Source of the DNA: a virus | Taxonomy: Duplodnaviria > Heunggongvirae > Uroviricota > Caudoviricetes | Length of the DNA: 64,000 nt | Reading direction: 5' to 3' (one strand) | Virus record (IMG/VR): IMGVR_UViG_3300044878_000136 | Span: 61,232-125,231 of that record | Part shown: piece after piece, positions 5,546 through 62,664 of the stretch | How the letters are laid out: every line of letters begins with the position of its first letter | Position numbering within the stretch: position 1 is the first letter of the stretch | Notes under the pieces: model-generated | Told to the model about the DNA's origin: nothing | Databases searched by the model: none | What the model saw: the letters and a program-made list of their open reading frames with translations, nothing else | Program-made: the position numbers and the translations under genes

Positions 5546-5557
5546 TCAGAGGTCATC

Positions 5558-6289: not shown

Positions 6290-6301
6290 TCGGAGAGCAG
6301 C

Positions 6302-7852: not shown

Positions 7853-7865
7853 GGTAATCTCCAGA

Positions 7866-7904
7866 TAAAAGAAAAGGTGTGAGTGGCGGGGATTGCTCCC
7901 CGCC
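7866..7904 (-). terminator. Intrinsic terminator
   Basis: 8-bp stem ggcgggga/tccccgcc with a GCAA loop on minus, followed by a U-rich tract on minus. Confidence 0.7.
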
Positions 7905-7910
7905 CTCCAT

Positions 7911-8270: not shown

Positions 8271-8295
8271 GGACTAGGGTAAGATTGTGTTGCGA

Positions 8296-10357: not shown

Positions 10358-10364
10358 AGATCCC

Positions 10365-10829
10365 TCAGTATTCGATAATGATCATGTCGTTGAATGCCGA
10401 GGCGTACACGCCAGTGACCAGACCATCCTTCTCGGTGATGGAGAGGTAGAGCTCACCTGCCACGCCATCGTCCACGATACCCAGCAGTGCATTCACGCAC
10501 AATGGGAGCTTGCGGTCTGCCTCGTGGAACATCCCGTTGTCCAGATACTTCTCCATCATCTCCACGGCATCGTGTTGCCGCCAGTTACGATAGAGCTGAG
10601 TCTTGTAGATGTGGCAAGCCTTGCACATCAGGTCGTCGCCACGACCCCACTTCACGCTGAGCATGATCGCCCGATCTTCAGTGTCGATCAGCTTCCATTG
10701 GAAGTTGTCGTCATTCTGCTCCCGAAGTAACCGGTCGAAGATCTCTTTCTCTTTGAAGTCAATGAAGTCCCGGTTCGTTTGATAGAACGCCGCGAACTCA
10801 TTTAGATCATTGCTCGTCTTGACAGACAT
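10365..10829 (-). CDS. Hypothetical protein, paralogue of 9890-10357
   Basis: Shared N-terminal pattern; SD gagga. Confidence 0.65.
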   Translation of the reverse strand: MSVKTSNDLNEFAAFYQTNRDFIDFKEKEIFDRLLREQNDDNFQWKLIDTEDRAIMLSVKWGRGDDLMCKACHIYKTQLYRNWRQHDAVEMMEKYLDNGMFHEADRKLPLCVNALLGIVDDGVAGELYLSITEKDGLVTGVYASAFNDMIIIEY

Positions 10830-10873
10830 GGTTGAATCCTCTGGTTTTTATTTTGAGAACATCAACTACGGTG

Positions 10874-11245
10874 TTACCCCTTCTTTACTAACCCGGATGC
10901 GAACAGATCATCCAGTGGGACTGGCTCGCCCCAATCCGCTGGTGGTACAAACGGTGGAACGTCTACTACAGCCTGCGGGATGTATTCGTGGATGCAGACA
11001 CCGGGACGGATATCGCCGGAGACTACGGCTACGATAATGATCTTGCCGTTATGGCTGGCAATCACGTTAGCCTTCGTACGGTCAGTCGGGTGGAAGCGCA
11101 ACATGATCGCGCCCTGCACTGTCTTCATGAACGGACGCTGGAGGATTTCGTCGATGTGGTTCAGATCCCCACGATCTACGTCCTTCTCGCCGATTGGGCC
11201 ATTGGAGGTGTTGGTGTCTTGCATGTTCTGTACAAAGTGCAGCAT
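10874..11245 (-). CDS. Hypothetical protein
   Basis: SD gagggg upstream of the ATG at 11245. Confidence 0.55.
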   Translation of the reverse strand: MLHFVQNMQDTNTSNGPIGEKDVDRGDLNHIDEILQRPFMKTVQGAIMLRFHPTDRTKANVIASHNGKIIIVAVVSGDIRPGVCIHEYIPQAVVDVPPFVPPADWGEPVPLDDLFASGLVKKG

Positions 11246-11256
11246 GGTGAATCCCC

Positions 11257-11616
11257 TCAAATCTTGAAATCGAAACTCGGTAGGTAGACGGGTATCTTCG
11301 CCCTACGAGTTGCTTTGACCATATCGGTCGTTCCTTTATTGCCAGGAAAAGCAATAACCCCATTCACGCCCGGTATCGCTAACATGGCTCTGTTGCGTAT
11401 CGGACCCGCGGCTTTAGGGTAAGTATCCCAATCAGCCGGTTCAGTGTGGTAGGGGACTCCACGATCTATGGCCCAGTCACGACCAAAACGATCAACCCCT
11501 CTCGCACCACCCTCAATGAGTAGTGTGATACCACGTTGGCGATGGACATGATCCAGCACCATGAACACGAAACCACTGTCTTTGTAATCACGACCGCCGG
11601 AGATGATAATCTTCAT
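11257..11616 (-). CDS. SLOG-superfamily DUF2493/YspA-like protein
   Basis: IIISGGRDY, LIEGGARGVD, AAGPIRN, IAFPGNKGT motifs. Confidence 0.8.
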   Translation of the reverse strand: MKIIISGGRDYKDSGFVFMVLDHVHRQRGITLLIEGGARGVDRFGRDWAIDRGVPYHTEPADWDTYPKAAGPIRNRAMLAIPGVNGVIAFPGNKGTTDMVKATRRAKIPVYLPSFDFKI

Positions 11617-12163
11617 GGTCTTTCAGTACGACCTCTGCGGCGTAGGGATAACGTTTGCGCCAGCGTTCACGCTGTTGCTCGTCCATGACGTTGTACTGAC
11701 GCAGCATCACGCGAGCCCGCTCTTCAGCACGGCGTTTATCCGCCAGCCTGGCCAGTAGGTAGGTTTCGATGTGATACTTCTCGACATCGTTACCGGGATG
11801 AGTCCACCAGACGCGGATCTTGTCGAAATGTAGTTCGTGACAATACCGCTTCTCGAATATCAGTCCGATCTTGCCAGACTTGATCAGGTTGATACCTTGA
11901 TGCTTGCGGGTAGACTCCTGGACGTGCATCTCACCCGTAGCCCGATCTTCGATAATAAAGATGGTCTTGCGCAGTGGAGTGGGTGTCGGGATAACATACA
12001 GGTCTACTTGATTGAATGTCAGACCTAGGAAGCTGATCTGATCTTCATTCACCAGAAACTCCGGAGGCTTACCGAACACCCCATACAGCCCAGACTGCGT
12101 GATCTTACGATCTTCAAACGCTGGCGCTTGTTCACTTACAGCTTCAGTCAGCTTAGGATCCAT
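11588..12163 (-). CDS. Hypothetical protein, possibly a degenerate GIY-YIG-like fold
   Basis: TIFIIEDRATGEMHVQES and a later E-x-x-L-L pattern resemble GIY-YIG spacing only loosely. Confidence 0.4.
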   Translation of the reverse strand: MDPKLTEAVSEQAPAFEDRKITQSGLYGVFGKPPEFLVNEDQISFLGLTFNQVDLYVIPTPTPLRKTIFIIEDRATGEMHVQESTRKHQGINLIKSGKIGLIFEKRYCHELHFDKIRVWWTHPGNDVEKYHIETYLLARLADKRRAEERARVMLRQYNVMDEQQRERWRKRYPYAAEVVLKDHEDYHLRRS

Positions 12164-12220
12164 CTTCCATCCCCTATTACATTGAAACCCACACTCCCCA
12201 ACGAAGTGTGGGGTATTGCC

Positions 12221-13048
12221 TTACTTCTTGTCGTTGGCCTTGACGTAAGCCCTAGCCTTTTCCATGAAGTCCCGTTCTTCATCGTTCGGGATGAGGTCAG
12301 GTTGACGCACATTACGGACAGCCAGCGACTTCAGCCAATCCTGTTCAGTACCGTAGTTGGAACTGTGGGCATTGCGCGGTTCGCCCGTCAATAGGTGAAC
12401 GAGGTCTAGATCGAAATCGCCTGCACCCGGACGCACCACCCGAACTTCAAACATCGCTTCCAGACGATCGCGTTCTCCCAAGGCGTAGACGATGTCATCG
12501 ACATTGTGCTTACGTGCGATCTTCACCGGATGAATCGTCTTCCAGAAGTTGCGCAGCAGCTCCACGGTTTCACCGGCGGCCTTATGGTAGATCAGTCGGA
12601 GGATGTCGATCTCCACCTGACCCAAGTGGTCGCTTGCCCTGAGTCGACTACCCCGTGCGTTCTCGCGGTTACGGCTACGATCGCGCTCCTCGAACTGGCG
12701 TTCATTACGCCGGTCATTACGCGCCTCGCCTTCGCCGGTTGGCTCAACTGGATCTGGAGTCCAGGCGTTGATCATGGTCAGGCTGAGGTCATCGCTGAAG
12801 TACAGACGTGCGTTGTCCAGCTGACTCTTCTCAGGACGATAGAACGACAGTGCCAGATCACCTTCCTTGGAAACGATGAAATCTTCCACACGGAAGTTCA
12901 GACCATCGAAGTCCAACACGATCTCGGCACGACGTTCCTGAATCTCACGACCCATGCGCTGAGCGGTATGGATGAGGGCGATTGCGCGGACCATTTCAGT
13001 GCTGAACATATCGGAATGGATAAACTGATTGAAGACTTCTTGACGCAT
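12221..13048 (-). CDS. Hypothetical protein with a central R/E/N-rich linker
   Basis: 275-aa ORF with SD aaggag. Confidence 0.6.
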   Translation of the reverse strand: MRQEVFNQFIHSDMFSTEMVRAIALIHTAQRMGREIQERRAEIVLDFDGLNFRVEDFIVSKEGDLALSFYRPEKSQLDNARLYFSDDLSLTMINAWTPDPVEPTGEGEARNDRRNERQFEERDRSRNRENARGSRLRASDHLGQVEIDILRLIYHKAAGETVELLRNFWKTIHPVKIARKHNVDDIVYALGERDRLEAMFEVRVVRPGAGDFDLDLVHLLTGEPRNAHSSNYGTEQDWLKSLAVRNVRQPDLIPNDEERDFMEKARAYVKANDKK

Positions 13049-13058
13049 GTGAAACTCC

Positions 13059-13550
13059 TTATTTTTTACTTAGGTCCATGGCGAGAATTATCTCAACCAT
13101 GTGTTCGAGTTTGGCATCCTGTCCCGTCAACCAAGGCAATCTGGCTTTGGGGATCTCTTCGACCGTTAGGAACCAGTCGATTAAAGCTTCACCGGGTTTG
13201 TCTAGAGTGAAGAGTGTGTTGATAGCCTCCCAGTCATCGTAGGGTAGCCATCTGAAGGCGCAATAGGTTCCCAGCAGGTTGACTGCACGACTTTTCCGCT
13301 GATCGCCTTGGTGGAAATACTGAGCCAACATCCCCACGTTACCGGAGATCATAATCACCTTCGACATATAGCCGTCAGGCGATATCTGACTGGTGTAATA
13401 CTCCGGAGTGTTAGGGTCCTTACCCTCAGCCCTCCACTGCCAGCGCCTTCTGATATCAGCGATAGGTAGCCAGAGGTTGACGAAGAAGATGATAGTCCGA
13501 TCGGACATATACCTGATCCGATGCAGTACTCGCTGCCTGATAGTTGCCAT
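13059..13550 (-). CDS. Hypothetical protein
   Basis: 163-aa ORF with SD aggaga; first gene after a TACAT motif. Confidence 0.6.
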   Translation of the reverse strand: MATIRQRVLHRIRYMSDRTIIFFVNLWLPIADIRRRWQWRAEGKDPNTPEYYTSQISPDGYMSKVIMISGNVGMLAQYFHQGDQRKSRAVNLLGTYCAFRWLPYDDWEAINTLFTLDKPGEALIDWFLTVEEIPKARLPWLTGQDAKLEHMVEIILAMDLSKK

Positions 13551-13619
13551 GCGGCATATCTCCTAAGCTTAGTGTATTCACTTGAATAATGTATCATTCC
13601 GAGAAGTTTGCGTAATAAA

Positions 13620-13725
13620 AGCCTCCCCCTCCTGAACACAGTTAAGAGCACTAGAGACACTCACTTCGTTCGTTCGTCTAGACGTTCGTTCCGTTCGGCT
13701 ACGCCTCACTACACTCACTTAGACA
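13620..13725. repeat. Low-complexity GTTC/CACT micro-repeat tract with a central palindrome
   Basis: acactcactt x2 (13657, 13711); (gttc)n on both sides of cgtctagacg; cctccccctcct. Confidence 0.7.
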
Positions 13726-13753
13726 GAATTAAATTAGTTCATCTGATGACTAC

Positions 13754-13780
13754 GCGTTGTAATATTTTACGTTAACAAAA
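13754..13780 (-). promoter_or_regulatory. Putative middle-type promoter (AAATATTAC on minus)
   Basis: Matches the AAanntTAC motif reported for phiKZ; near-duplicate at 62864-62893. Confidence 0.5.
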
Positions 13781-13787
13781 TAGAGCA

Positions 13788-13810
13788 GGAGTGGGCCGAA
13801 ACCCACTCCT
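13788..13810 (-). terminator. Terminator downstream of portal
   Basis: ggagtggg-ccgaaa-cccactcc hairpin just after the portal stop. Confidence 0.6.
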
Positions 13811-13822
13811 CTCCAAAGGGAC

Positions 13823-16800
13823 TTATGACTTCGGTTTGGTAGGCTCACCGAGGTCGATCTTCAGATCGTCATCAGTAGCGTCCTTACCTTTACCTTTCTT
13901 GTCATCCTTCACCGCAGGTGCTTCACCGAGATCCAGCTTGAGATCATCTTCCGACAACTCAGGCTCTTTCTCACCTTTCGGCTGTTCAGGTTCGTCGAGG
14001 TCGATGTTCAAGTCATCCTCGCCTTCCTTAGCAGGTTCCTTACCTTCCTCACCCTCTGCTGGAGGTTCATCCAGATTGATGGTCAGGTCGGAGTCGGCAT
14101 CAGCGGGTTTATCACCCTCAGGCGCCGCAGCAGCGTCGTCAGCAGGCGCGGCCGGTTCAGCCGCATCAGCGGCAGGTGCGGCAGCATCTGTTGCGCTAGC
14201 GTCGTCTGGAGAGCCCAGGTCGATACTCAGGTCATCCGTCGCAGCGGCTGCATCAGCTGGTGCATCTGTATCCGCCGGAGCGTCAGTAGTAGCCGCAGCA
14301 TCGTCAGTAGTGGTGTTAGCATCAACACCAGACTCAGCATCGCCCAGATCCATGGAGAGATCATCGTTGCCAGTAGCGTTATCGCCACCCAGCTGATCAT
14401 CCTCACCGCCGAACTGATCGTCTTCGGTAGGCTCAGGCACGTTACCGTTAGCCAGCTCAGAACCACCACCGTAAGAGTCATCCATCGGCTCTTCAGGCTG
14501 TGCGCTGAGTTCTTCCAGCATCTTGGTAGCCTTCTCGATCTCATCCACGGTTTTAGCCGTGGACTTCTTACGCTTGACAGAGTCAATCGCAACACGCTTG
14601 GCAAACGCACCCACAGACTTCATGACCGATTCGACGTGGTTAGACATCTCGTCCGTCAGGTCCATCACAGGGCTACCATCCTCAGCAGAACTGAAGACGT
14701 CCAACTCACGCAGGATACCACGCTTACGCATCCATTGACGCAGGATGACACCTTTCCAAGCAGCAACCACAGTAGGCATTGCTTCCTTGATCTTGTCTGG
14801 CGCGTAGCCGTCGAAGAATTCCTCGGAGATATAAGCAGGTAGAGCCTTGTCCAGGGTTTCGCTGAAGTTGTTGAACAGTTCCATCTGCTTGGTCAGGTTG
14901 TCAGACTCAGGAGCCGGCAACTTAACAGTCAGGTTGTTCAGGAACTCTTCCAGGAAGCCTTCAGGATCAGACTTCCAATCATCAGGCAGGTACTTGGAGT
15001 TCTGCTCGATGATGTCCATCAGTTCAGCGATGAGGATACCCGAGTTGTACGTAAAGATACGCACGTAGTCGGTGATCATCGGGTTGGTCTTGCCCTGGAT
15101 AACCATGACGCGCTTTTGCAGCATGACGCTGTTCTGCACGACCGTGGTTGCGAAGTCAGGTTGGTTAACGCCATCCACCATGTCAGCCGTCAGACCGAAC
15201 ACACGGATCAGGTCATCACGCAGCTGTTGTTGCAGGTCGTTGTCGATCTGCGCAAAGCTGGACTCGCGAGGACTGATGCTGGTCTTCACTTCAGGGAACC
15301 GAGGGTTACCCGTTACGTTGACCGAGAAGGACGACATCTGGAGTTGCTCAGCCAGACCCACTGTCGAACTCAACGCCATCGGGAACTGGTGATAAGCCAG
15401 ACCCAACGCTTCGTTCGCCATGAAGGTAGCAGTGCCCAGTGGGTCACCGTCATCTTCTGGCAGTTCGATGTTGATGTCTTTACCAGGGATCGCGTTCTTG
15501 GTCGAACCAATTACGTTGGCCACGGTAACAGCAGCACGCATTGCTGCGAGCGACTTGGCATCTTCCAGGATCGACTTACCGATACCGAACTCGTTGTAGT
15601 CGTAAGCCATGTAGATCATGAGCTCAGCAGGCACGTAGAGCATGGTGGTCAGCTGGTTCTTCATGGAACGAGCAAACATCAGACGGTCGATGTGCTCAGT
15701 GTGAGTCAGTTCAAACTCACCGCCCATCATGCCAGTCCGGAAGCGAGCCACGATGTCAGCGTCAACCAGTTCAGCGTGCAGGTTAGCCAGTGCATCGATC
15801 TGACCGTCAGAAGCGTTAGCAATGCCGCCAACGATTGCTTCCTTCGACATCTGGATCAATTCACCCGACACACCGCCCGACGAACCAGCCTGATCACCAC
15901 CGCTGCTATTACGACGGATGTCATCGTAGTAGTTGAGGCGACGGGAATAACTGATCGGATAGCCGTTGGCATCGAGTAGGATAATGTACCCAACGTGGTT
16001 GGATTCATCGCCTGGCACGCAGACCGGCATTACCGCTTCGGTAGAGAGGTGATACTCGAGAGGGTGACCTGCGTTACCCCCACCGGCTTGTTTGCCGCTA
16101 GGCACTACTTGCAGGCGGCTACGACGCGTTTGCTGCGGCTGTTTGTAGAACTTGTTGTAGATCTCGGAGTTACCCGGAGCATCTTTCATGTTGTCAGCTT
16201 TACGCTGGCGACGACGCGCTTCGAGCGACGGAGTGCCATAGGCGTTTTCCATCACACGACTGCGTTTCATCTTCTGAACTGCTGGAGTACGCAGAACAGC
16301 CATGTTGTCTGTCACACGAATCGGCAGAGAGACCTTCTTCCCGCCATTAGTTGTCTTGATTGTATGATATTCAGCCATGGCGCCTTGGCGCAGTCGACCG
16401 CTGGCGGACTCCAACGAAACGTAGGCGTCGCCGTTAGCAGTCGGCAAGCTGAGGCCGAAAATACCCTTGGGTTTGTACCACCCATCAACAAACTCGCCAC
16501 CGTACGAGCTGATGGATTCCATCGATGCATCGTCGTCACCCAGGACCAACCGGTCCAGTGTGGCTTCGGGGATGATGAGGATCGGGTGAGCACCGGACCA
16601 GATAAGGGCGTCGTCTACCCATTCGGCCACCTTGGTGTCGGTCTTCTTCGTGTTAATGAAGAAGTTCTCAAGGTTCTGCACCAGAGGCGAGCTGAGGGCG
16701 GTATCACAGCCCTTCATCTCGTTGCCGAAGATCAGGGTGTTTTGCGCCAGATCACCTGGTGACATGATGGCACTGATGAGGATCTCACGCGGTAGGTGAA

Positions 16801-17052: not shown

Positions 17053-19284
17053 ATGAATGCCCATTACCGGCTCTATATCAAGAGCACATTGAAATTGGCG
17101 GCTACGCTCTTAATAAAGAGTGCGAGTACGGCCGATACGCTCAACGCCAAAGTAGTCGCTCAAGGCTACAAGGTGGATCGAGACAATCCGTACACTTGGA
17201 AGTACTACCTGAACATGTCGGGTATGTACCACGAGTCGGATACCGAGATGAAGGTCATCTCCCTGGATACTCAGGAAGAGATCTCCTTTGACGTCGATAC
17301 CCTTGCGGAACACCGTGGCACCAAGCGTGAATATGCCTACGGTTCGATCTACTACAAGGAATTGGTGGCTGCGTATCCTGACCAGCAAGCGCTGATCAAC
17401 GGCATCCTGAATCCCATCGACATCGAGACCGCGGTTACGTCAGAAGACCATAAGATCTTGTGGCACGACAGCAAAGAGGTCGAGGAAGGTGAAGAGTACC
17501 TGATCCCACGGGTTCAGCGTTACATCGACATGTACTTCTTGCAGCGCGATAACCGCGACTACGGGTTGTTCGAACCTTTCTACTATTCGGGTCTGATGGG
17601 TGTCCTGTACACCAAGTTGCCGCTCTGGATCATCACGCTCCGCAAAGAGATGTGCAAGACTGACCAAGTGCACACGTTCTACGTGCGCCAGTACCTGACC
17701 TCGTTCAGTGCGGTCGGTAAAGAGTTCGACTACATGACGCGCAAGTTGCGTCTGTGGCTGTACCGCAACATTCGTTACCTCAACCGGAACCTCGGTCGTG
17801 AAGAGATCCTCAAGCTCACCACCCAAAAGGTGTTGACGGATCGTGGATTCAACCTGTCCGGCTTTAAGCTGAGTCATGTGTATGAAAACACCACCACGAC
17901 GCTGAGGCCTGAAGTGGAACTCCAGCAGGAGACCCTCAACGGGATCGAACCTGCGAACGGTGCCACTGACAAGTCGGTCGGTGAGATGTTGGACATGGAG
18001 CTGACTCAGGCCAGGGGTAACCCTCTGTACCGCGAGGATGCGGAACCAGACGTGACCAAGCGTAGTGTGCACGCCAAGACCAGCACCCACATTACCAAGG
18101 TCTTGGAGTCCAACGTACTGGACCGGGCAGACGCTGATCCGTTCACCTTGACTGATGTCTTGTTGAACCATTGGCTGTACCTCGCTCACTTCGGTCGCTA
18201 CAACACGGTGTTGCAGATCACCAACCCAAGTAACGGCGATGTGTTCAAGCTGTCGGCGAAGAACGCCTTCATCTTCTACCTCTATGCGTACAACAAGGCG
18301 ATCGGGATCACTCTCGAGAAAGTGCCTGTGGTTTCGGCCAACCGTGTTCGTCGTATGCCGTTGCCCACATTCACGGAACTGCGCAAACTCGCAGAACCTA
18401 AACGTGTGCCTGACTACGCCCTCCATCACTTGCTGACGGACCAAGTAGCGATCACGCGGTATGTGTCGGTTGATGCCTTTAAGGAAGTCTGCGTCGACAT
18501 TCATCGTCGTATGCTCGATCATCGCAAGTTCCGGTGCTACTACCAGGACTATAAAGCCGAAGGTCAGCTACACACCGTGGTGGATCGGTTCTACCAGGAT
18601 ATCCGCATCGACCTCGCCAAGCAGCAGTCGTATAGCTCTTGGTTGGCTGATGTAGGTATCGATACCTCGGCCATGGGGCGCGTTGAATATCAGCTGATGT
18701 TTAGCACGATCTTCAACCAGATCACCGGGGCAGACCTGAGCAATGCCAACAGCGTGCGCGAGATCCATCGCTCGATGCTGCGGATCATGCGTGCTCTGTC
18801 GTCCTACTCGGTGCAGTTCATCCAAACGATCAACGACTCTCCAGTCAAGGTTGTGGATGGCAAGTTCCCTAAGCAGACGATTCCGAAGCTGGATGAAACT
18901 GAACACGCCCTGATCGATATCGACCCACCCACGATTCTGGATGTCGATTCGTATGAGCGCCGGTACGACAAGATCCTCGCTCGCGTCGGTGTGGACTACC
19001 ACTCCAACGTAGTGAAGACCACTGCCAAGATCCCGGTCAACGTCAACATCAAGTTGTTAGGTCGGGGACGTCTTGTCTCCCGCATGGACTTCAACCTTCC
19101 GACCCTGAAGCTGATTCCCGAAGCCGTCACGGACATCTCGGGGGATCGCACACTCACGCTTGACTACCTCGAGCCTGAGCGGATGGATTACGCGGACCTG
19201 TTCATTGGGTCTGGGTTCCCCGTCATGTCGGGCGGTTATGACAGCCTTACTGACAATCGTCGGAAGATGTTCCTCGGACTTTAA
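17053..19284 (+). CDS. Baseplate wedge-like virion protein (phiKZ gp128-like)
   Basis: TWKYYLNMSGMYH..D..M.V.SLDT.EEI.F motif; synteny with the portal. Confidence 0.7.
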   Translation: MNAHYRLYIKSTLKLAATLLIKSASTADTLNAKVVAQGYKVDRDNPYTWKYYLNMSGMYHESDTEMKVISLDTQEEISFDVDTLAEHRGTKREYAYGSIYYKELVAAYPDQQALINGILNPIDIETAVTSEDHKILWHDSKEVEEGEEYLIPRVQRYIDMYFLQRDNRDYGLFEPFYYSGLMGVLYTKLPLWIITLRKEMCKTDQVHTFYVRQYLTSFSAVGKEFDYMTRKLRLWLYRNIRYLNRNLGREEILKLTTQKVLTDRGFNLSGFKLSHVYENTTTTLRPEVELQQETLNGIEPANGATDKSVGEMLDMELTQARGNPLYREDAEPDVTKRSVHAKTSTHITKVLESNVLDRADADPFTLTDVLLNHWLYLAHFGRYNTVLQITNPSNGDVFKLSAKNAFIFYLYAYNKAIGITLEKVPVVSANRVRRMPLPTFTELRKLAEPKRVPDYALHHLLTDQVAITRYVSVDAFKEVCVDIHRRMLDHRKFRCYYQDYKAEGQLHTVVDRFYQDIRIDLAKQQSYSSWLADVGIDTSAMGRVEYQLMFSTIFNQITGADLSNANSVREIHRSMLRIMRALSSYSVQFIQTINDSPVKVVDGKFPKQTIPKLDETEHALIDIDPPTILDVDSYERRYDKILARVGVDYHSNVVKTTAKIPVNVNIKLLGRGRLVSRMDFNLPTLKLIPEAVTDISGDRTLTLDYLEPERMDYADLFIGSGFPVMSGGYDSLTDNRRKMFLGL

Positions 19285-19307
19285 CAGTCTTCTACTTGAG
19301 GCGAATA

Positions 19308-21386
19308 ATGAGTACGCCAGAATCCCTTCTCAAGATGGATTCTTTGGATGCGGTTAAGCAGGTCCTATTGGACAACCTGCCAGCCTGGGTAAAGAAAGAA
19401 TGGCTCGTTGTTGAGGGCATTCGACCTAAGGGTGCACCGTTCCCCAAAGACGCTCTGGCGGAGATGACGTTCAGTAGCTTCTACGCGCCACCTGCAATCA
19501 GTGCCAAGTTCAAGGATCCCTTGACCTTTCAGTTCCGTCGATTGGATCTTTCCGAGTTTCTAGCGGGAGTCGACAAGACTGTAAAGTTCAAGGGGTTGGT
19601 GAGCTCGGTCGACATCCTCAGTCGATTGTTAGCGAAGCACGATATCCCGGTTAGCCAAGCAGACGTGGATTTTTTCATGACTGAAGCTGCCGGGGAGTAC
19701 GTCATCACTGCCCCGTCTACCTCACCACGTTGGGTGGGGTCGATTGCTTTACAGCTGGTTCGCGAAGCATACCTCCTCAAAGAGTTCTTCTCGAATGCTG
19801 CTATCTATATCCCATTCTCGCCGAGTTTCCGCTCAGACGACTTCTTAAAGGTCTTGCTGAAAGCGATAGAGAACCACAACTCGTCGTACGAAGAACCCTA
19901 CAAGCTTAGGCCTGAGGATTTCCGCATTACCGCAGGCCCAACTGTTATCGAACCTGATGACACGGGTCTGAACACCAAGATTACATTGACAGGCATCGGT
20001 GGTGATTTCACCGGGTCGATGGACTTCATCTACCAGCGTAAATCGTACACCCCAACCTACCGCCATGCTGTTAAGGTGGCTACGGGCGGGACACCGACGC
20101 GCGAGAAGGTACTGGATGCCATCAACTTCAAGTACGACACTGGTCTGGTTGAAAGCGACATTGCCAACTGGGATTCCCTCCCAGCCAGCATAGTTGAGAA
20201 GGGGACTTATCGCCTGATCACTGTACCTGATTCCTTGACGACGGTCGGCGACATCTATGTCGAACTGATCATCTACGACGAATCGAACCAGATCGACTTG
20301 CAGACAGAGATCTTCGACGAAGTGCTGGATGGCTTCATCCTGACTCACACCTGCAAGATGTCGCTTGAATTGCTTGCACCGAACAAAGAACTGGACGGCT
20401 TTATTCCTCCGTACGCCAAACCTGATGTCTCGGTCTGCACCACTGTGCCGTACCTGGATGGGTTCACCAGTACGAAGAAACGTCCGATCGCTGAATACAC
20501 GAAGGTTCCGTTCCTTGACGGCTTTGATAGCGTGAAGGGCAGGGTCATCAGTGAAGTCACACCGTTGCCGTTCCTTGACGGGTTCAGCAGCGATAAGAAA
20601 CGTTCACTCCCAGAACGCATCCGCGAACGTGAGTTGGACGGCTTCGATGGCTACAAGCTCAAACTCCTCAATGAGGTGTATACTGAGCCTTCGCTGGATG
20701 GCTTCGATTCCCTCAAACGTAAACCGCTGTCTGAAGTGCTCTACATCCGTAAGCTGGATGGTTGGGACGCTGACACACGTCTACCGCTCACGGAAGTCTT
20801 GGTCACCACCAAGCTTAACGGGTTCGAGTCGGATAAGAAGCACTCGATCGCTAACGAGTTGGAAACCACTAAACAGGATGGCTTTGACAGCGATAAGCTG
20901 AAACTGCTGACTGAAGTGGTAGTCACCCCTGGCCTCGATGGTTTCGAATCGGATAAACGTCACCTGTTGTCCGAGCAGATCCCAGTCCCTGCGCTTGACG
21001 GTTACGATAGCGACAAGCTGAAGCTGCTGACCGAAGTCCTGGAACCTGATCAGGATGGATTCGAGTCCGATAAGCTGTATCTGCTTTCTGAGCAGGTACC
21101 GACTCCGGCACTTGATGGTTATGACAGCGACAAGCTGAAGCTATTGTCTGAAGTGGTGGAATCGCTTGACGGCTTCGAGGGTAAAACCAAGCACCGTCTG
21201 AGCCAAGCTCTTGCTATCCGTAAACTGCCAGGCTTCGAGTCTGATAAGCTGAAGAAACTCTCGGAAGTGTTTGTACCGAAAGTCGACGGCTTTGAAGGTA
21301 AGGGTCCTGACGGCATGGACCTGAGCAAGATCATCACGAAGACTAAGGTTGAGGGTCTGAACTACCCAACACCGCCTACCCCGTAA
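19308..21386 (+). CDS. Virion protein: N-terminal stalk-type domains + 18 tandem ~20-aa LDGF repeats
   Basis: FQFRRLDL and FIYQRK stalk-family motifs; repeats visible in the translation; ATG at 19308 follows SD gagg. Confidence 0.7.
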   Translation: MSTPESLLKMDSLDAVKQVLLDNLPAWVKKEWLVVEGIRPKGAPFPKDALAEMTFSSFYAPPAISAKFKDPLTFQFRRLDLSEFLAGVDKTVKFKGLVSSVDILSRLLAKHDIPVSQADVDFFMTEAAGEYVITAPSTSPRWVGSIALQLVREAYLLKEFFSNAAIYIPFSPSFRSDDFLKVLLKAIENHNSSYEEPYKLRPEDFRITAGPTVIEPDDTGLNTKITLTGIGGDFTGSMDFIYQRKSYTPTYRHAVKVATGGTPTREKVLDAINFKYDTGLVESDIANWDSLPASIVEKGTYRLITVPDSLTTVGDIYVELIIYDESNQIDLQTEIFDEVLDGFILTHTCKMSLELLAPNKELDGFIPPYAKPDVSVCTTVPYLDGFTSTKKRPIAEYTKVPFLDGFDSVKGRVISEVTPLPFLDGFSSDKKRSLPERIRERELDGFDGYKLKLLNEVYTEPSLDGFDSLKRKPLSEVLYIRKLDGWDADTRLPLTEVLVTTKLNGFESDKKHSIANELETTKQDGFDSDKLKLLTEVVVTPGLDGFESDKRHLLSEQIPVPALDGYDSDKLKLLTEVLEPDQDGFESDKLYLLSEQVPTPALDGYDSDKLKLLSEVVESLDGFEGKTKHRLSQALAIRKLPGFESDKLKKLSEVFVPKVDGFEGKGPDGMDLSKIITKTKVEGLNYPTPPTP
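20296..21386 (+). repeat. In-frame tandem repeat, ~60-nt period (L-x-E-V-x5-LDGF-x-SDK)
   Basis: 18 degenerate copies counted by eye, e.g. ...gacagcgataagctgaaactgctg... and ...gatagcgacaagctgaagctgctg... Confidence 0.85.
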
Positions 21387-21400: not shown

Positions 21401-21856
21401 ATGGACACGATCAGTGAAGTGCCCTTCCATCGTATCGAACGCTATGTCAAGTACCCTCCGGTGGAGGGTTTCTTGATCATGGTGAATGACGCCTTTAACC
21501 TGCGTCTAAGACCGGAGTTTGCAAAAGCTACGGTCATCGAATCCGATGGTGTGAATGCCGTCGCCTTGATCGAAACGTTCGACTCCATCAGTGAAGCAGT
21601 GCCCCGTGTTCACACGGGGTCTCTCACGGTGCGGTACAAGCGTCTCGATATGAGTGAATGGTTTACTGCCACCAAACTCAAGGTAAAGGCCCCAACCAAC
21701 ACGTCAGTCATCCTGAACCTCCTCCGTACCAACGACAGCTACTATTTGACTGCCAACGACATCGTTGCGGATAACTCGCTTGAGCAAGTGTCCACGATCG
21801 AGGCAGCCGAGCAGTCGTTGTTCTGGTGGGGTTCATTCCTGGTTGAGCTGTCGTAA
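21401..21856 (+). CDS. Stalk-family (Y-x-R-L-D) virion protein
   Basis: VRYKRLDM; C-terminal AAEQSLFWWGSF pattern shared with the array. Confidence 0.65.
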   Translation: MDTISEVPFHRIERYVKYPPVEGFLIMVNDAFNLRLRPEFAKATVIESDGVNAVALIETFDSISEAVPRVHTGSLTVRYKRLDMSEWFTATKLKVKAPTNTSVILNLLRTNDSYYLTANDIVADNSLEQVSTIEAAEQSLFWWGSFLVELS

Positions 21857-21872: not shown

Positions 21873-22919
21873 ATGAGTAACTGCGATTACCCTCTGAATC
21901 GTTTCAATAAGCCCAGCAAGCAATTGCTGGTTGAGATGATCAACGCGTTTAACGGGGCCAGTCTGAAAGCCGATCAGCTGATCTTCGGTACTCCTGTACC
22001 GGTACAGGATGATGGCAAGACCAACATCACGGTCAAGTTCCAGACCAACACCGGCTGGTCGCTGGATTCACGGATCATCACTTACTACCGCATCGAGGCT
22101 ACCCGCCACGAGCAGTTGAGTCGTCTGGTGCTCCACGCTGAATCCCTACCTGATACTCCGGCCTTGCTGGACGCCATCTTTCAACAGACCGGCGTTCTGC
22201 TGGAACCTGAACTCATTGAAGTGCAGGAGATCTTCGGTGGACTGGATGCTGATCAGTCGGACATCACCAACCGTGTGAAGCAGCCGTTCCTTCAAGGCTT
22301 TGATGAAGTGCCTGCGGTGCCGTTCGTGCATGATCCTGACCTGGACCGTAACTTCAAGATCAGCTTCAAACCTGACCACTTGATCTTCTTCGGCAGCATC
22401 GTCGTGATCGTGCGCCCTGCAATCAACTTGCTGGGTAACAACATCGCACGTCGCATGGACTTCCGTGACTTCTATAAGGACGGCGTCTTCGGACGACCTC
22501 CGGTTGACCTGTATATCCCTCAGGGTGTCTTGTTGGTCGGCCCGCAGCATTCGACGGTCATTGGGGATAGCAAGCAGACGCAAGCCTATCTCTATGAACA
22601 GAAGGCTGGTCCTATCGTCGCGATCGATAGCCAACTCCACGATATCCTGGATCGGCTGACCAGCGACCTTTGGCGTTACGTCCCTGACGCCACAGTGGAT
22701 TTCAATATTTACAACAGTACCATCCTCTATAACGGGTTGGTCTCACCAGAATACAGCGCAGACGATCCACGCTACAGCTACGTCATGGTCATCCAGTTGG
22801 GTGATAAGTGCCGTAACCTGAGCGGGGTGTTGCGGATTGGCTACCGGTACTCTTCCCCTGCCGTGCCGGCAAACCACCAAATCAACGCAGCGTCCGCTAC
22901 GCCACTTTTCCAACATTGA
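21873..22919 (+). CDS. Stalk-family two-domain virion protein
   Basis: KQLLVEMINAFNG, ITYYRIE, FLQGFD; C-terminal ILYNG...YSYVMVIQL domain. Confidence 0.7.
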   Translation: MSNCDYPLNRFNKPSKQLLVEMINAFNGASLKADQLIFGTPVPVQDDGKTNITVKFQTNTGWSLDSRIITYYRIEATRHEQLSRLVLHAESLPDTPALLDAIFQQTGVLLEPELIEVQEIFGGLDADQSDITNRVKQPFLQGFDEVPAVPFVHDPDLDRNFKISFKPDHLIFFGSIVVIVRPAINLLGNNIARRMDFRDFYKDGVFGRPPVDLYIPQGVLLVGPQHSTVIGDSKQTQAYLYEQKAGPIVAIDSQLHDILDRLTSDLWRYVPDATVDFNIYNSTILYNGLVSPEYSADDPRYSYVMVIQLGDKCRNLSGVLRIGYRYSSPAVPANHQINAASATPLFQH

Positions 22920-22928: not shown

Positions 22929-23804
22929 GTGAACACTATTCAATCCACCCTGTATGGTGCCAAGACTCTGGTCCACCTCCTCCTGGGTCACACGCCGGTC
23001 ATCCCGTCGCGTACTACCTTTAACGAGCGTCTGGGTATCCAAGACGCCGCTGTCCCGCAGAACAACGAGAAAGTTTATCTCGGTGTAATGACCGTGGGCA
23101 ACAAAGGTCACCGCGCTGTCGTGGGCGATGGTGGTATCGCGCTGACTTCGGTCATCGACCACCTGGCGAACCACGCGTCGACTTACAACCCGGTGCCATT
23201 CGCACTGCGTCGTATCGACGATGACCTGCCAAAGGCCTTGCGTGATCGCCTGTGCCTGCGTAAGGAGATGATGGTCAGTGGCGTGAACTACTACGGCTAC
23301 TTCGGCTACCGGATGGATATCGATCCGGCTGACGTGACTGTGGTGATGAAGAAGATCACCGTAGAGAACGGTCAGACCACCGAAGAAGTCTTCACCCCGA
23401 CTACTGCTGACCTCTACCCTGAACCGGTTGAGCTGCCAGTCAAGGGCGCGGTGTCTACCACTGACGTCAGCCTGTCGGTTAGCTGCGTGATCCGCGTACG
23501 CCTGGATGAGATCATGATCCAGGAGTTCATCAACGCTGCCAAGATCATGCACAACGGCGATGAGCGCTACGCCATCATGTCGGAGTTCGCACTCTGCACA
23601 GCCGCTGACCGCACCATCTCCGTTCCGAGTACTTCCGGCCAGGTTAACTTCCTCGAAGCGATCGGCGTTACCGCCTACAGCTACTCGATGGACCACAAGG
23701 CACTGTACTACAACAGCCAAGAGCTGACGTTGGACTTTGACTTGGGTAACCAGCTGCCGCTGTTGGGCACTGCGTCGATCCCGACGCTGGAAGTCATTCC
23801 TTAG
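22929..23804 (+). CDS. Virion/baseplate structural protein (phiKZ gp127-like), GTG start
   Basis: T-x-NE, GNKGH, PF-x-x-R-x-x-x-x-DL, Y-x-x-Y-x-x motifs; synteny. Confidence 0.6.
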   Translation: MNTIQSTLYGAKTLVHLLLGHTPVIPSRTTFNERLGIQDAAVPQNNEKVYLGVMTVGNKGHRAVVGDGGIALTSVIDHLANHASTYNPVPFALRRIDDDLPKALRDRLCLRKEMMVSGVNYYGYFGYRMDIDPADVTVVMKKITVENGQTTEEVFTPTTADLYPEPVELPVKGAVSTTDVSLSVSCVIRVRLDEIMIQEFINAAKIMHNGDERYAIMSEFALCTAADRTISVPSTSGQVNFLEAIGVTAYSYSMDHKALYYNSQELTLDFDLGNQLPLLGTASIPTLEVIP

Positions 23805-23809: not shown

Positions 23810-23844
23810 GCATAGGAGGCCACTGGGGCTAACACCCCAGTGGC
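23810..23844. terminator. Hairpin terminator with TATGC on minus
   Basis: gccactgggg-ctaaca-ccccagtggc preceded by gcata. Confidence 0.65.
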
Positions 23845-23851
23845 ATTGTGT

Positions 23852-24502
23852 ATGTTCATAAATTTCGATGCTGATGATTCATGGAAGTTCCGAGTTCTGG
23901 GTATCGACAACGGCACGAATACTGTCGGCATCGTTATCCTTGAGCATGACATCCGTACGGGTGTCAGTCTTGTTACACGCGCTGAGACGTTCAAGGCGGA
24001 CCGCACGTCGGGTTACTTGTACCCTGACATGAATTTTTACGAAGATACGCTTGTAGCGCGCCTCAAGACGATTCAGCGGTATATGCGCACGGTGCTCGAG
24101 GACGAAGATCCCGACTCTGTGGCCATTGAGACACCATTTGCCCGTCGCGCATTCGTGAGTAGTTACAAAGCGTTATCCATGTCGCTTGATTATATCCAGA
24201 CAGCTGTGTATGATTATCGACCTGGCTTAGAGTTCGTCGGGATTTCTCCTTATACAGCCAAGGCCGCTGTAATTCCAAAAGGGAGCAATTTCAAAACGGA
24301 GAAGGATTACATCCGTGACTGTATTCTTGCAGACCCCACGATTGTTGCAGTGGACGGTATCAACCTGAGGACTCTGGACGAGCACTCGATTGACGCCATC
24401 GCTGTAGCTAGGGCCGTGGCTTTGCGAGAGAACCTGGGTCCACGTTTGTTGTGGTACGGTTCGAAATACCCCGACGGCATAGATCTGATGAGGGCGGACT
24501 AA
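23852..24502 (+). CDS. ruvC: RuvC-like Holliday junction resolvase
   Basis: VLGIDNGT, VAIETPF, SPYTAKAAV and DEHSIDAIAVA acidic catalytic motifs. The ORF-track GTG at 23840 lies inside a hairpin. Confidence 0.85.
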   Translation: MFINFDADDSWKFRVLGIDNGTNTVGIVILEHDIRTGVSLVTRAETFKADRTSGYLYPDMNFYEDTLVARLKTIQRYMRTVLEDEDPDSVAIETPFARRAFVSSYKALSMSLDYIQTAVYDYRPGLEFVGISPYTAKAAVIPKGSNFKTEKDYIRDCILADPTIVAVDGINLRTLDEHSIDAIAVARAVALRENLGPRLLWYGSKYPDGIDLMRAD

Positions 24503-39807: not shown

Positions 39808-40335
39808 ATGGACACACATATGGACGGCAAACAGCAACTAATCGACATGATTGTGTCGACGAATAGGGAGGTAATCGAAGGCTTCGATGTCGTGCTTGAT
39901 GCAAGTTCGCTGGTGCTGTCCCTTCCAAGGGCGGATGACATCGATGGCATGAACACAGTGGTGATGGCAACCGCTGTGCACGAAAAGGTTGAAAACAACC
40001 AAGTCTTCTATTACAACCGTTTGACGCAAGAGATCTTTGAGGCGAAGCTGGGCAATCCGACCATTTTCATTCCCAAAGAGATCAAGACCCCTGGGCAACT
40101 CACCGCTTATTTTGCCGGCACTTATAATGTCGACATCGATCTCGCCCAAACGCAATCCGTAGTTCGCAATCGTTTTGGGTGGGTGGTTAAGTTTTTTACT
40201 TGGTCTTATATCTGGGCAGGGACGTTTATCTTCGATGCTGAGGATGACCCACTTGATCCAGTCATTACACCTCTGGAAGACATCATCACCAAAACGCGTC
40301 TGGACGGTCTTTACTACCCAGACCCTCCATTGTAG
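39808..40335 (+). CDS. Stalk-family virion protein (single domain + LDGLYYP tail)
   Basis: FYYNRL; ends PLEDIITKTRLDGLYYPDPPL. Confidence 0.7.
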   Translation: MDTHMDGKQQLIDMIVSTNREVIEGFDVVLDASSLVLSLPRADDIDGMNTVVMATAVHEKVENNQVFYYNRLTQEIFEAKLGNPTIFIPKEIKTPGQLTAYFAGTYNVDIDLAQTQSVVRNRFGWVVKFFTWSYIWAGTFIFDAEDDPLDPVITPLEDIITKTRLDGLYYPDPPL

Positions 40336-40872: not shown

Positions 40873-41433
40873 ATGATGGCTAAGCACATCAGTGATTTCA
40901 GCAAGTTGCCGCAGGAGATCGTTTTCGATCTCATCAACGAGCAGAACGGCACGGCATTCAACAACACCCTGGTGGAGCTGGGCCTGCCGACAGTAACCAC
41001 CACCGCCGGTGCCACTTACAACACCGACATGACCGTCACCGCGATCGAAGGATCCGGTTACAGCGGTCAGGTCATCCTCGGCTATAACCGTCTGGACGTT
41101 CAGGGTTTCCTGTTCGGCGAGACTCTCGTGTTGCCAATCGGTAACGCTGAGAACTTCTCCGACCTGATGGCCGAGATCAACCTCAAGCTGCGGACCAACA
41201 TCACCGCTGACGACTACATCGATGGCAACATCGTAGCGACGTCTGGCGAGTGGGAAGGTCTGCCGAACGAAACCAAGCTGATCACCATCCAGATGAACCC
41301 GGACAGCCCGGTCTTCATCGGTTCGTTGACGCTTACCCTGCACGCTGAGGACATCCCTCTGGGTCAGGTCATCACTCTGCCAGTGATGGACGGTCTGAAC
41401 TACCCACCACCTCCGGCGCCACCAGCGCCGTAA
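40873..41433 (+). CDS. Stalk-family virion protein (single domain + MDGLNYP tail)
   Basis: DLINEQNG, GYNRLDV, PVFIGSLT. Confidence 0.75.
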   Translation: MMAKHISDFSKLPQEIVFDLINEQNGTAFNNTLVELGLPTVTTTAGATYNTDMTVTAIEGSGYSGQVILGYNRLDVQGFLFGETLVLPIGNAENFSDLMAEINLKLRTNITADDYIDGNIVATSGEWEGLPNETKLITIQMNPDSPVFIGSLTLTLHAEDIPLGQVITLPVMDGLNYPPPPAPPAP

Positions 41434-59456: not shown

Positions 59457-60071
59457 ATGGCAGATCCAAGCACCAATCCATCTGCATCACTAAGTTCTGT
59501 TCGGGTCCAGGTGATCCAACAACTTGCTGGCGATGTCAACATCGTCAAGAACAAAACGGGTAAACAGCTGTTCGATACGCTGCGGGCGGTCTATCTCCCG
59601 ATCAGTACTCTTGAGTTGTCGCGTGCGACGGTATCTGGTCCAATCCAGGTGACGGGCAACTTGACGAAGGTCACGGTTACGCCGGGTCAACACAGTTCCT
59701 ACCGCCTGCCGATCGATCTGACCTACGTGCGGTACTCCATCAACGAACTGGACAACATGACAGTTCCTGGTGGTGGGTTCGCGTCGGTAGCAGCGTTCCT
59801 GACCTACGTGCGTGGGTTGAGCCTCCAGATCCTCGACGAGGACATCGACCTCGTTAAGAGCGTCCGTCGCAGTGATGGTACTGTCAGTATCTATCCATCG
59901 AAGGTCAGTTGGTTGTTCTCGCCAGATGGATCGTACGACAGCTCGACTGTGCCACGAATCGAGACCGTTCTTCCTAACCTGGTTACTACTGACTTTGACC
60001 ATACGCCACAGCTCCACTTGGCGCTGGTTAACGGTAACCTGACTGGCTTCGATCCTGAAGGAGGTAGCTGA
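59457..60071 (+). CDS. Stalk-family protein ending in two LxGF-like repeats
   Basis: LTYVRYSI; ...LVTTDFD...NLTGFDPEG. Confidence 0.7.
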   Translation: MADPSTNPSASLSSVRVQVIQQLAGDVNIVKNKTGKQLFDTLRAVYLPISTLELSRATVSGPIQVTGNLTKVTVTPGQHSSYRLPIDLTYVRYSINELDNMTVPGGGFASVAAFLTYVRGLSLQILDEDIDLVKSVRRSDGTVSIYPSKVSWLFSPDGSYDSSTVPRIETVLPNLVTTDFDHTPQLHLALVNGNLTGFDPEGGS

Positions 60072-61124: not shown

Positions 61125-61171
61125 GGCATAAATGACACTGCGGGTTTCCCCGCAGTGTCATCGCTTATGCC
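61125..61171. terminator. Bidirectional terminator with TATGC on both strands
   Basis: 13-bp stem atgacactgcggg/cccgcagtgtcat flanked by ggcataa...ttatgcc. Confidence 0.8.
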
Positions 61172-61608
61172 ACAGTGATGGTGATAAAGACACCACCGCC
61201 CTGGTACAGCATGCTGGTGGGTTTTGGTGACACACCGATACTGCCTGGGGTACCCGCATCAATAGGTGGAGTCCATTCACTGAACACCAACTGATCGAGT
61301 CGAAGACCCATAGCAGCAGCGACTTTGACCTCAACAGCAGCCTGGTCATCGGTAACGAGTACTTCCACACTGGTCACGTCCGGTCCAACGCCGTCGTTGA
61401 TCCCCATGCGGTCGTAAAAGATCACATCGTCACCGCTAAAGCCATGACCTTCAATAGCCGTCAAGGTTATCTGGGTGTTCCTTACACCGCCGGATACAGC
61501 CAAACCGCTGGCAGTAACTTGGTCAGCGCTCAGAGTGAGCCCAGGGTTGTCCTCAATAACCTGGAGAACGATATTCTCCAGGGGCGTTTTGGTGATGTCG
61601 ATATGCAT
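61165..61608 (-). CDS. Stalk-family single-domain protein (paralogue of 61653)
   Basis: MHIDITKTPLENIVLQVIEDN; IFYDRMGI. Confidence 0.7.
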   Translation of the reverse strand: MHIDITKTPLENIVLQVIEDNPGLTLSADQVTASGLAVSGGVRNTQITLTAIEGHGFSGDDVIFYDRMGINDGVGPDVTSVEVLVTDDQAAVEVKVAAAMGLRLDQLVFSEWTPPIDAGTPGSIGVSPKPTSMLYQGGGVFITITVA

Positions 61609-61652
61609 ACCACTTACCCTTAGGGAAGCCGCCATCCTTGGCAGCCTAGCGG

Positions 61653-62159
61653 TTAAGCTTCAGGATCGAAGCCGCTCAGCTCGTCGATCACGATTTCGTC
61701 ACCGAGATCAGGAGCAACTGGCAGGGTCAGTTCCAGCACTTTGGCTGCGCCGACGTACAGCAGGCTACCAGCCACCGGAGTGATGGTGATGGTACCTGGA
61801 ACGCCTGCGGCAGCGGCAGTGTAAGCCGAGAAGGTCAGTTCGGAAGTAACCAGACCCAGGGCGGTAACGACCTTGGCCTGAACGGCAGCTTGGTTGTCAG
61901 CTTCCAGAACTTCCAGAGTGGTAACTGGAGTGACTTTGCCACTGTCCAGGCCCAGACGGACGTACTTGACCAGCTTGGAACCGGTGAAGCCCTGACCTTC
62001 AACGGCGGTCAGGGTCACTTGGGTGTTCTGAGGGCTGCCGCCGTATACGGACGGTGCACCAGCAGTAACCTGGGAAGCGGTCAGAGCCAGACCGCTGTTG
62101 TCTTCGATGATCTGGAGAACCAAGTTCTCCAGAGGCGTTTTTGCTACGTTAATCTTCAT
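61653..62159 (-). CDS. Stalk-family protein + LSGFDPEA tail
   Basis: MKINVAKTPLENLVLQIIEDN; VKYVRLGL. Confidence 0.75.
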   Translation of the reverse strand: MKINVAKTPLENLVLQIIEDNSGLALTASQVTAGAPSVYGGSPQNTQVTLTAVEGQGFTGSKLVKYVRLGLDSGKVTPVTTLEVLEADNQAAVQAKVVTALGLVTSELTFSAYTAAAAGVPGTITITPVAGSLLYVGAAKVLELTLPVAPDLGDEIVIDELSGFDPEA

Positions 62160-62223: not shown

Positions 62224-62664
62224 TTAGAACACCAGCTTGAAGCTGTAGTCGCCATGGTAGATCAACGAATCAGGTTTGGCAGACACAATCAACAGGCCGG
62301 GACGAACACCGACTACCGGCATCTGTGCGGCCACGAAACGCCATTCAGCAGCTTGTAGCGGGAACACAGCCATCGCAGCGTCGAAGATCTGTTGGTCAGT
62401 CATGCCTGCGGTGACAGTGACTTGGATAGACTCGCTACTACCCAACTGGTTCACTGCGGAGCTGCGGTTGTAGTACAGGTAGTCAGAGCCACTGAATACC
62501 GGAGTCGCACCTGGGGTGAGTTGTACGCGGGCATTGGTCGGTTGTTCGATCAACTCTTCCACCGTGCCGAAGGTCACGTTAACCGCTGTCAGGTTAGTCC
62601 CGTTCAGGGAGTTCAGCAGGTCGAGGATGTTCTGTTGAGCGGTCTTTGCGTTATTAAGATTCAT
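62224..62664 (-). CDS. Stalk-family single-domain protein
   Basis: DLLNSLNG, LYYNRSS, AKPDSLIYHG; SD aggaga. Confidence 0.7.
   Translation of the reverse strand: MNLNNAKTAQQNILDLLNSLNGTNLTAVNVTFGTVEELIEQPTNARVQLTPGATPVFSGSDYLYYNRSSAVNQLGSSESIQVTVTAGMTDQQIFDAAMAVFPLQAAEWRFVAAQMPVVGVRPGLLIVSAKPDSLIYHGDYSFKLVF

Follow-up and report, generated by a model that had tools for sequence, protein, structure and literature searches.

A DUF7941 protein of a giant-phage baseplate operon bears tandem docking motifs and is probably a multi-site fibre anchor

The stretch of DNA analysed here (64,000 nucleotides, the window) belongs to a 263,994-bp record of an uncultured virus with 54% G+C. The phage is a phiKZ-like giant phage and a member of the Chimalliviridae. 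Gene 19308–21386 of the window encodes a 692-residue protein, hereafter the hub, in which two N-domains of the Pfam family DUF7941 are followed by 18 tandem copies of the short motif that other members of the family carry behind such a domain. We read the hub as a baseplate-associated DUF7941 member with a string of docking motifs, probably a multi-site anchor for fibres, and put the probability of this reading at roughly 0.55. A multivalent role is favoured above all by the comparison with arrays found in other lineages.

The original prediction, made from the letters alone, had described 18 repeats of about 20 residues in this gene and had started it at position 19308, which is correct. Within the open reading frame 19296–21386 (+), the ATG at 19308 is the real start, because all hub homologues begin MSTPESLL; residue positions of the repeat units are counted here from 19296. 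The parts of the gene are the following.

19308..21386, plus strand: hub gene, 692 amino acids; two DUF7941-type N-domains, then 17+1 tandem docking-motif units
19506..19796, plus strand: first, weaker DUF7941-like N-domain (phrog_2935 at residues 71–157; PF25613 positions 61–164 in the genome search)
19851..20342, plus strand: second DUF7941 N-domain (Pfam PF25613 at residues 186–349, profile positions 11–172; the genome search concurs)
20292..21302, plus strand: 17 tandem units of ~20 amino acids, consensus L-x-E-x-[LIV]-x4-L-D-G-F-[DE]-S-D-K (unit positions, logo and shuffle test)
21315..21383, plus strand: terminal unit of another flavour (…E-G-L-N-Y-P…), with L676, G687, L688 and P691 invariant in 14 homologues

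The PF25613 match of residues 186–349 scores 73.3 bits against a cut-off of 27, which makes the hub a DUF7941 member; it also matches phrog_1037 and phrog_2935, and it lacks the C-domain of the family. The first unit follows directly on the second N-domain, in the place of the family's linker or tail. From residue ~333 onward the protein has 17 units, each with a [DNP]-G-[FWY] core and set 18–22 residues from the next (cores at 345, 367, 388, 408, 428, 448, 468, 488, 508, 528, 548, 568, 587, 607, 625, 645 and 664), and a terminal E-G-L-N-Y-P at residue 686, at the C terminus, brings the total to the 18 that had been predicted. This last unit resembles the tails of 39808–40335 and 40873–41433. 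In residues 331–692 the core [DNPE]-G-[FWYL] is found 20 times, whereas 5000 shuffles gave 1.5 on average and never more than 7. Tandem Repeats Finder detects no repeat in the DNA, so that the array is visible in the protein only, and the units share a mean identity of just 43% in DNA and 34% in protein. On both counts the array is judged old and maintained, and neither recent slippage nor an assembly artefact is its source. Prolines and small changes in length concentrate in the variable spacer of the units.

The hub family comprises 14 homologues with 13–21 units; the 13 beyond the hub itself come from metagenomes and have the same gene neighbours. A tblastn search with the whole hub protein against 50,697 phage records gave no match, the repeat half alone gave none among cultured phages, and no cultured phage carrying a hub of the 19308–21386 type was found in this way. 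A sequence search of the PDB with the whole protein returned a single match at chance level.

Single copies of the same peptide occur in DUF7941 proteins across the window. The profile search gives ~29 DUF7941 domain matches in the genome, and nearly every N-domain in the array of paralogous genes has the motif after it. Copies stand at the C-termini of 39808–40335, 40873–41433, 59457–60071 and 61653–62159 (−) and in inter-domain linkers, for example in 46922–47812, 51752–52870 and 53882–54988. All the occurrences listed in the original prediction are real, with the coordinates attached to them marking gene ends or starts and not the peptides. The single-domain members considered here are these.

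39808..40335, plus strand: N-domain and G-L-Y-Y-P tail (sequence; phrog_1037)
40873..41433, plus strand: N-domain and G-L-N-Y-P tail (sequence; phrog_1037, 5e-31)
59457..60071, plus strand: N-domain and T-G-F-D-P-E tail (sequence)
61653..62159, minus strand: 168-amino-acid N-domain and tail (…E-L-S-G-F-D-P-E-A), the G-F of the tail being invariant in 24 homologues
61165..61635, minus strand: tail-less paralogue of the 61653 class, 49% identical to the 61653 protein, a possible chain end (sequence stops with the domain)
62224..62664, minus strand: tail-less paralogue, a possible chain end (Pfam; sequence)

Taken over all 217 units of the 14 hub homologues, the unit consensus reads L (59%) at −11, E at −9, L/I/V (77%) at −7, L (82%) at −2, D (73%) at −1, G (100%) at 0, F/W/Y (100%) at +1, D/E (72%) at +2, S at +3 and K at +5. 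The tail of 61653–62159 has the same residues at the same spacing. A hub unit also aligns in register with the end of gp23 and the linker of gp22 of phage Goslar and with the ends of FLC9 gp325 and gp326; Goslar gp31, gp33 and gp34 each carry the motif once, after the N-domain. At the level of sequence, these alignments identify the hub unit as the post-domain linker and tail motif of the DUF7941 family. The motif has two flavours: D-G-F-[DE]-[SP], found in the 17 internal hub units and in the tails of 61653 and 59457, and G-L-x-[YFW]-P, found in the terminal hub unit and in most linkers of two-domain array members. A calcium-binding reading of D-G-F-D-S-D, by likeness to dockerins or EF-hands, was dropped because the acidic residues are out of register with the loops of those families.

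The hub gene lies in the baseplate gene cluster of the phage, among the following neighbours.

17053..19284, plus strand: baseplate wedge protein, homologue of phiKZ gp128 and Goslar gp35 (9xqs_C, PHIKZ128, 3e-107; 11lx_Bh; 36za_sR; phrog_3222)
21401..21856, plus strand: 151-amino-acid N-domain-only DUF7941 protein in the phiKZ gp126 slot, a candidate client (Pfam; gene order as in OMKO1, DT01 and L020)
21873..22919, plus strand: DUF7941 protein with N-domain, linker (…L-Q-G-F-D-E…) and C-domain (Pfam and sequence; orthologues in DT01 and L020)
22929..23804, plus strand: spoke protein (DUF7208), homologue of phiKZ gp139 and Goslar gp32 (PF23838, 5.8e-73; PDB 9xpg_A, PHIKZ139; 11lx_Aa)

The wedge homologue is present in 290 jumbo-phage records, and the spoke gene stands three genes 3′ of the hub. 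Flanked by homologues of PHIKZ128 and PHIKZ139 and syntenic with Goslar, the gene is part of a chimallivirus baseplate operon, as had been predicted; the order of wedge, DUF7941 gene or genes and spoke is kept in Goslar, OMKO1 (a phiKZ relative), RAY, SPN3US and DT01. In phiKZ the wedge gene is followed by PHIKZ127 and then by the 147-residue gp126. This conserved order therefore places the hub in the gp127 slot, after the wedge gene and before a gp126-like gene, and 21401–21856 in the gp126 slot; the correspondence is positional, and orthology to gp127 is unproven. In the phiKZ structure one gp127 sits at the outer end of each band of gp139 (PMC13250141), the spoke protein that links the inner and the outer baseplate. 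Directly 3′ of the spoke gene lies a weak RuvC-like gene (23840–24502; Pfam E 7e-4, below the cut-off), as it does in DT01 and L029.

Tandem arrays of the motif recur on different proteins in other lineages. A more distant syntenic orthologue of the hub, P0167, has ~11 units and a terminal G-L-N-Y-P. Independent hubs, each with one different N-domain and then L-D-G-F-D units, are found in P0166 (~19 units), P0168 (~17+3) and P0175 (~9). In P0166 and P0168 a small cluster of DUF7941 genes starts with the hub; all neighbouring N-domains there are closest to the 61653 class, and the C-domains of some neighbours resemble SPRY or ConA domains when judged by eye. In cultured relatives of the P0166 hub N-domain, FLC9 and RP12 among them, there is a single tail only. 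Wedge tails bear 3–5 units (L-x-G-L-W-x-x-P) in Goslar, 4 in RAY gp7, 3 in G003 and 12–13 in G004/P0151. The hub clade keeps about two weak copies on the wedge tail, as in 17053–19284, and bears its array on the protein of the next gene. A third site is the gp126-slot protein of L028–L030, with 2–3 units; in these lineages, as in DT01, the gp127-slot protein is a tail-less double N-domain protein of 318–327 residues. Subunits conserve the motif in one copy, as their tail, and different proteins of the baseplate have it multiplied; it is most simply read as a binding site whose number is under selection.

Several individual proteins in this comparison deserve a record of their own. The wedge homologue at 3756–6635 (−) of L016 (G004:C1:50255–53134) has 959 residues, the last 250 of which hold ~13 tandem G-F-[DE]-Y-[PS] units, so that wedge body and array form one natural fusion; another such case is P0151. 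L018 encodes at 10228–12102 (+) a 624-residue protein with a hub-type N-domain, six L-D-G-F units, a 61653-class N-domain and a C-domain that is SPRY- or ConA-like by eye, and its neighbours 12118–13179 and 13228–14241 have the same N-domain and a similar C-domain. The gp126-slot orthologues with tandem units lie at 7716–8360 (+) in L029, 7704–8300 in L028 and 7760–8350 in L030; their 2–3 units follow the N-domain, and the gp127-slot protein has none. P0169, which the representative search also matched, is a repeat protein of an unrelated kind and was not considered further.

The number of units can be set beside the number of DUF7941 matches in five genomes.

G000: 29 DUF7941 matches, 18 motif units
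G001: 29 DUF7941 matches, ~18 motif units
G002: 25 DUF7941 matches, ~16 motif units
G003: 13 DUF7941 matches, no hub, 3 units on the wedge tail
G004: 15 DUF7941 matches, no hub, 13 units on the wedge tail

Since these genomes are few and closely related, and G004 is out of line, we draw no conclusion on whether repeat number follows array size.

The baseplate setting and the distribution of the arrays also bear on whether the hub is structural at all. It might instead be an assembly factor that keeps many N-domains bound, so that they do not polymerise too early in the cell, or a mere flexible spacer. A string of competing docking peptides could indeed buffer free N-domains, and the hub's place in the virion is so far a matter of homology. 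The gene, however, belongs to the structural baseplate operon in all relatives, other lineages have the same arrays fused to the wedge protein itself, a solved virion component, and a pure spacer would not keep its G and its F/W/Y at 100% over 217 units. We regard a non-structural role as highly improbable.

A different objection is that the array folds by itself. Alone or as a homotrimer, the repeats would form a fibrous shaft or a solenoid, and their likeness to the tails would merely reflect where they came from. Such a construction is common in phage fibre shafts, and the regular period of 18–22 residues, the conserved hydrophobic positions, the conserved Gly turn and a 40-residue super-repeat in the distal part of the array would all suit such a fold. 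AlphaFold2 does not return one for the single chain. For the full hub, modelled with 14 aligned homologues, the predicted local distance difference test (pLDDT) stays below 50 across residues 328–696, which include all repeats (the hub's own N-domains are of low confidence too, 25–80), and across the repeats of two unrelated hubs, this one included, it is 25–38. In a natural fusion from another phage, in which six units precede a 61653-class N-domain (27 rows), the N-domain exceeds 90 and the units, the first excepted, remain below 50. No repeat family matching the hub was found in Pfam or the PDB. The low pLDDT in two hubs, these blank searches and a spacer that is rich in prolines and variable in length argue against a monomeric solenoid, the fold that the original prediction had set against its own proposal. 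Moreover, the conserved positions are those of single-copy tails, which cannot form a shaft, and arrays of just 2–4 units exist on other proteins. A self-folding array is thus an unlikely explanation.

How, then, might the units be bound? In AlphaFold 3 predictions for Goslar, protomers chain head to tail, each linker docking on the N-domain of the following protomer, and purified gp22 forms filaments (Basu et al. 2026, bioRxiv 10.64898/2026.04.21.720040). The proposal that the peptide is a docking element between subunits fits this model and the in-register tails. The original prediction had gone further, likening the peptide to a donor strand: 18 equivalent strands would complete incomplete folds and seed up to 18 fibres combinatorially from all ~22 paralogues. 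That analogy finds no support in the 61653-class N-domain, which even in the absence of the peptide is predicted as a complete alpha/beta fold (pLDDT above 90). The one fold found to match it is the N-domain of phiKZ gp127 (9xqd; 150-residue chain, E 2e-4, template-modelling score 0.55), which is neither a pilin nor an incomplete immunoglobulin (Ig) fold.

The all-paralogue part of the scheme can appeal to the motif behind nearly every array N-domain, to the ~29 domain matches of the genome, and to the network of predicted hetero-interactions described for Goslar (Basu et al. 2026). The 17 internal units, however, are of one flavour (D-G-F-D/E-S) that recurs elsewhere only on the tails of 61653 and 59457, most members having G-L-x-[YW]-P, and this uniformity points to a single N-domain class as client. 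Independent hubs likewise adjoin one N-domain class only. Eighteen fibres drawn from all 22 paralogues are therefore less likely than a class-specific dock, and we give the scheme as a whole, donor strands included, little credence.

The proposed contact was modelled with the N-domain of the 61653 family, a class picked by its motif alone and found also beside the independent hubs. Two copies of the N-domain (residues 1–147, 23 rows) were combined with two hub units (residues 532–577, 14 rows). The complex scores 0.39 (runs of 0.39, 0.06 and 0.42), compared with 0.15 for the best of three controls, which is weak support; at least 52% of contacts are common to the runs, and the partner pLDDT is at least 43. 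In calibration, 58 of 80 solved complexes reach the mark and 2 of 110 mismatched pairs do so; 7 of the 80 solved complexes, and both passing mismatches, reach it at 0.60 or below. By the tool's own account, a pass of such strength is wrong in more cases than not, except where the guess had been likely in advance. Of the test that had been suggested for each stalk domain with the LDGF peptide, one class was modelled, with weak support and one run at 0.06, and the prediction adds only a small increment to the case that a unit binds an N-domain. Of the original idea of multivalent seeding, what is retained is the multivalent role, favoured by the comparative arrays with this one weak prediction beside them; the recruitment of all paralogues is not.

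A number of points weigh against the hub as a multi-site anchor. The sole complex test is a weak pass in which one of three runs failed. In the natural fusion no unit docks confidently in cis, and the first unit alone rises, to a pLDDT of ~51. The pLDDT values come from shallow alignments (14–27 rows) and are weak evidence for disorder. The units of the hub are nearly contiguous, with a spacer of ~2 residues, and N-domains of 150 residues would have to be seated on them side by side. The presence of the hub in the virion is inferred from homology alone, and a BLAST comparison of phiKZ-type gp127 with the open reading frames of the window gives no match to the hub, similarity being undetectable beyond the family level.

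Four N-domain-only DUF7941 proteins of the window have neither tail nor linker (61165–61635 (−), 62224–62664 (−), 40340–40831 and 21401–21856), so in a head-to-tail system they could only end chains. In another arrangement, each hub unit would be capped by a tail-less protein of this kind (21401–21856, 61165 or 62224), giving one unbranched composite fibre whose length is set by the repeat number. In keeping with it, the hub gene at the P0001, P0167, P0166 and P0168 loci is followed directly by a protein of 139–153 residues that consists of an N-domain only, and phiKZ gp127 is predicted to bind the N-domain-only gp126, a gp127–gp126 dimer having been fitted into phiKZ density (Basu et al. 2026). 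Against it, the orthologues of 21401–21856 in L028–L030 themselves bear 2–3 motifs and therefore are not obligate chain ends, and the hub unit best matches the tail of the probably self-polymerising 61653 class. A capped, unbranched fibre seems to us improbable.

As a multi-site anchor, the hub would be fixed to the outer baseplate by its two N-domains, as gp127 is, and its C-terminal half would form a flexible, unfolded string of 17+1 docking motifs, each binding one N-domain of another DUF7941 protein. In this way it would multiply the attachment sites for a DUF7941 fibre "cloud"; with six copies per virion, if it behaves as phiKZ gp127, up to ~108 sites would be offered. The preferred clients of the internal units would be the gp23-like class of 61653–62159, which shares the tail, and its paralogues. 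This class is the best candidate and is probably self-polymerising like Goslar gp23; the gp126-slot neighbour 21401–21856 would be the other. Tail-bearing clients of the 61653 class could extend filaments and the tail-less 61165 and 62224 could end them, and the terminal G-L-N-Y-P unit may take a client of another class.

A baseplate-anchored fibre cloud has been proposed for Goslar, with six anchoring sites assumed and the outer baseplate unresolved, and ~580 copies of gp22 and ~2140 of gp23 are reported per virion (Basu et al. 2026). In 2026, DUF7941 filaments, with thousands of subunits per Goslar virion, were proposed to be a major organ with which nucleus-forming jumbo phages find their hosts. 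Docking peptides in a row offer a concrete answer to how such filaments attach: they predict the sites and their valency and suggest a way to tune that valency. More tentatively, and with less than even confidence, we suggest that tandem DUF7941 motif arrays are a general and hitherto unrecognised device for fastening the fibre cloud to chimallivirus baseplates. The array would shift between the wedge tail and the gp127-slot and gp126-slot proteins, its copy number (1 to ~21) would set the filaments per baseplate sixth, and in the hub clade the result would be a brush of ~100 filament origins per virion. Should the anchor reading be wrong, the repeats would still be a conserved, unexplained feature of a structural protein.

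The DUF7941 gene array itself shows some further peculiarities. An N-domain reading frame at 48754–49257 is overlapped in another frame by 49164–49577, whose end bears a C-domain signature (…Y-L-H-F-N); the pair resembles a single two-domain DUF7941 gene broken by a frameshift, be it a pseudogene, a sequencing error or a programmed event. The listed start of 45791–46909 overlaps the preceding gene by ~170 bases, and a family-type N terminus (M-P-I-F-Q-G…) near 45975 is probably the real one. Seven genes without an N-domain are interleaved in the array (49586–50569, 50583–51737, 52880–53869, 54996–55940, 55948–56901, 57945–58859 and 60071–61123), and a Pfam scan of five of them gave no match in any. 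Each comes after a DUF7941 gene, which suggests pairs of adaptor and binder.

The DUF7941 family and its head-to-tail model are already published, as a preprint. The preprint does not mention tandem motifs or the wedge tail (Basu et al. 2026), and no paper among those searched describes tandem docking arrays, be it on a separate hub protein or at the end of the wedge. Goslar gp22 and gp23 share with the hub the Pfam family and the post-domain motif, the gp23 tail (…A-D-G-F-V-K-P…) aligning with a hub unit, and head-to-tail docking and baseplate anchoring are proposed for both. Unlike these proteins, which have one motif each, the hub has 18 in tandem and no C-domain. Its counterpart by position is the phiKZ pair gp127/gp126 (PDB 9xqd; PMC13250141), where the slot directly after the gp128 wedge gene is likewise followed by an N-domain-only protein; gp127, however, has 290 residues with one N-domain, one linker and a C-domain, whereas the hub combines two N-domains with an array of repeats. 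Wedge tails (Goslar gp35, RAY gp7, phiKZ gp128 family) resemble the hub in that a baseplate protein of the same operon bears 3–13 tandem copies of a related motif, L-x-G-[LF]-[WDE]-x-x-P, but there the array is fused to the wedge body and here it is on the separate product of the next gene.

Three systems outside the family offer looser parallels. In the scaffoldin of the cellulosome, tandem cohesins bind dockerin-tagged enzymes, and the proposed hub would similarly be one scaffold with many equivalent sites that gathers modular clients. The roles are reversed, since the hub scaffold bears the peptides and the clients the folded domain; the two have no relation in sequence or fold, and the hub has no calcium-binding dockerin loop. 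In chaperone-usher pili, donor-strand complementation completes an incomplete Ig-like subunit with a donated strand, and in both cases a short peptide of one subunit would bind the next and make chains. The DUF7941 N-domain, in contrast, is predicted to be a complete alpha/beta domain without likeness to pilins, the peptide is C-terminal, and neither chaperone nor usher is involved. Finally, the branched receptor-binding-protein systems of CBA120, G7C, phiK64-1 and phiKp24 mount many binders on few baseplate sites through adaptor modules. Those adaptors are folded domains, T4 gp10-like or other, and give a small number of defined branches, whereas the hub is a string of linear motifs.

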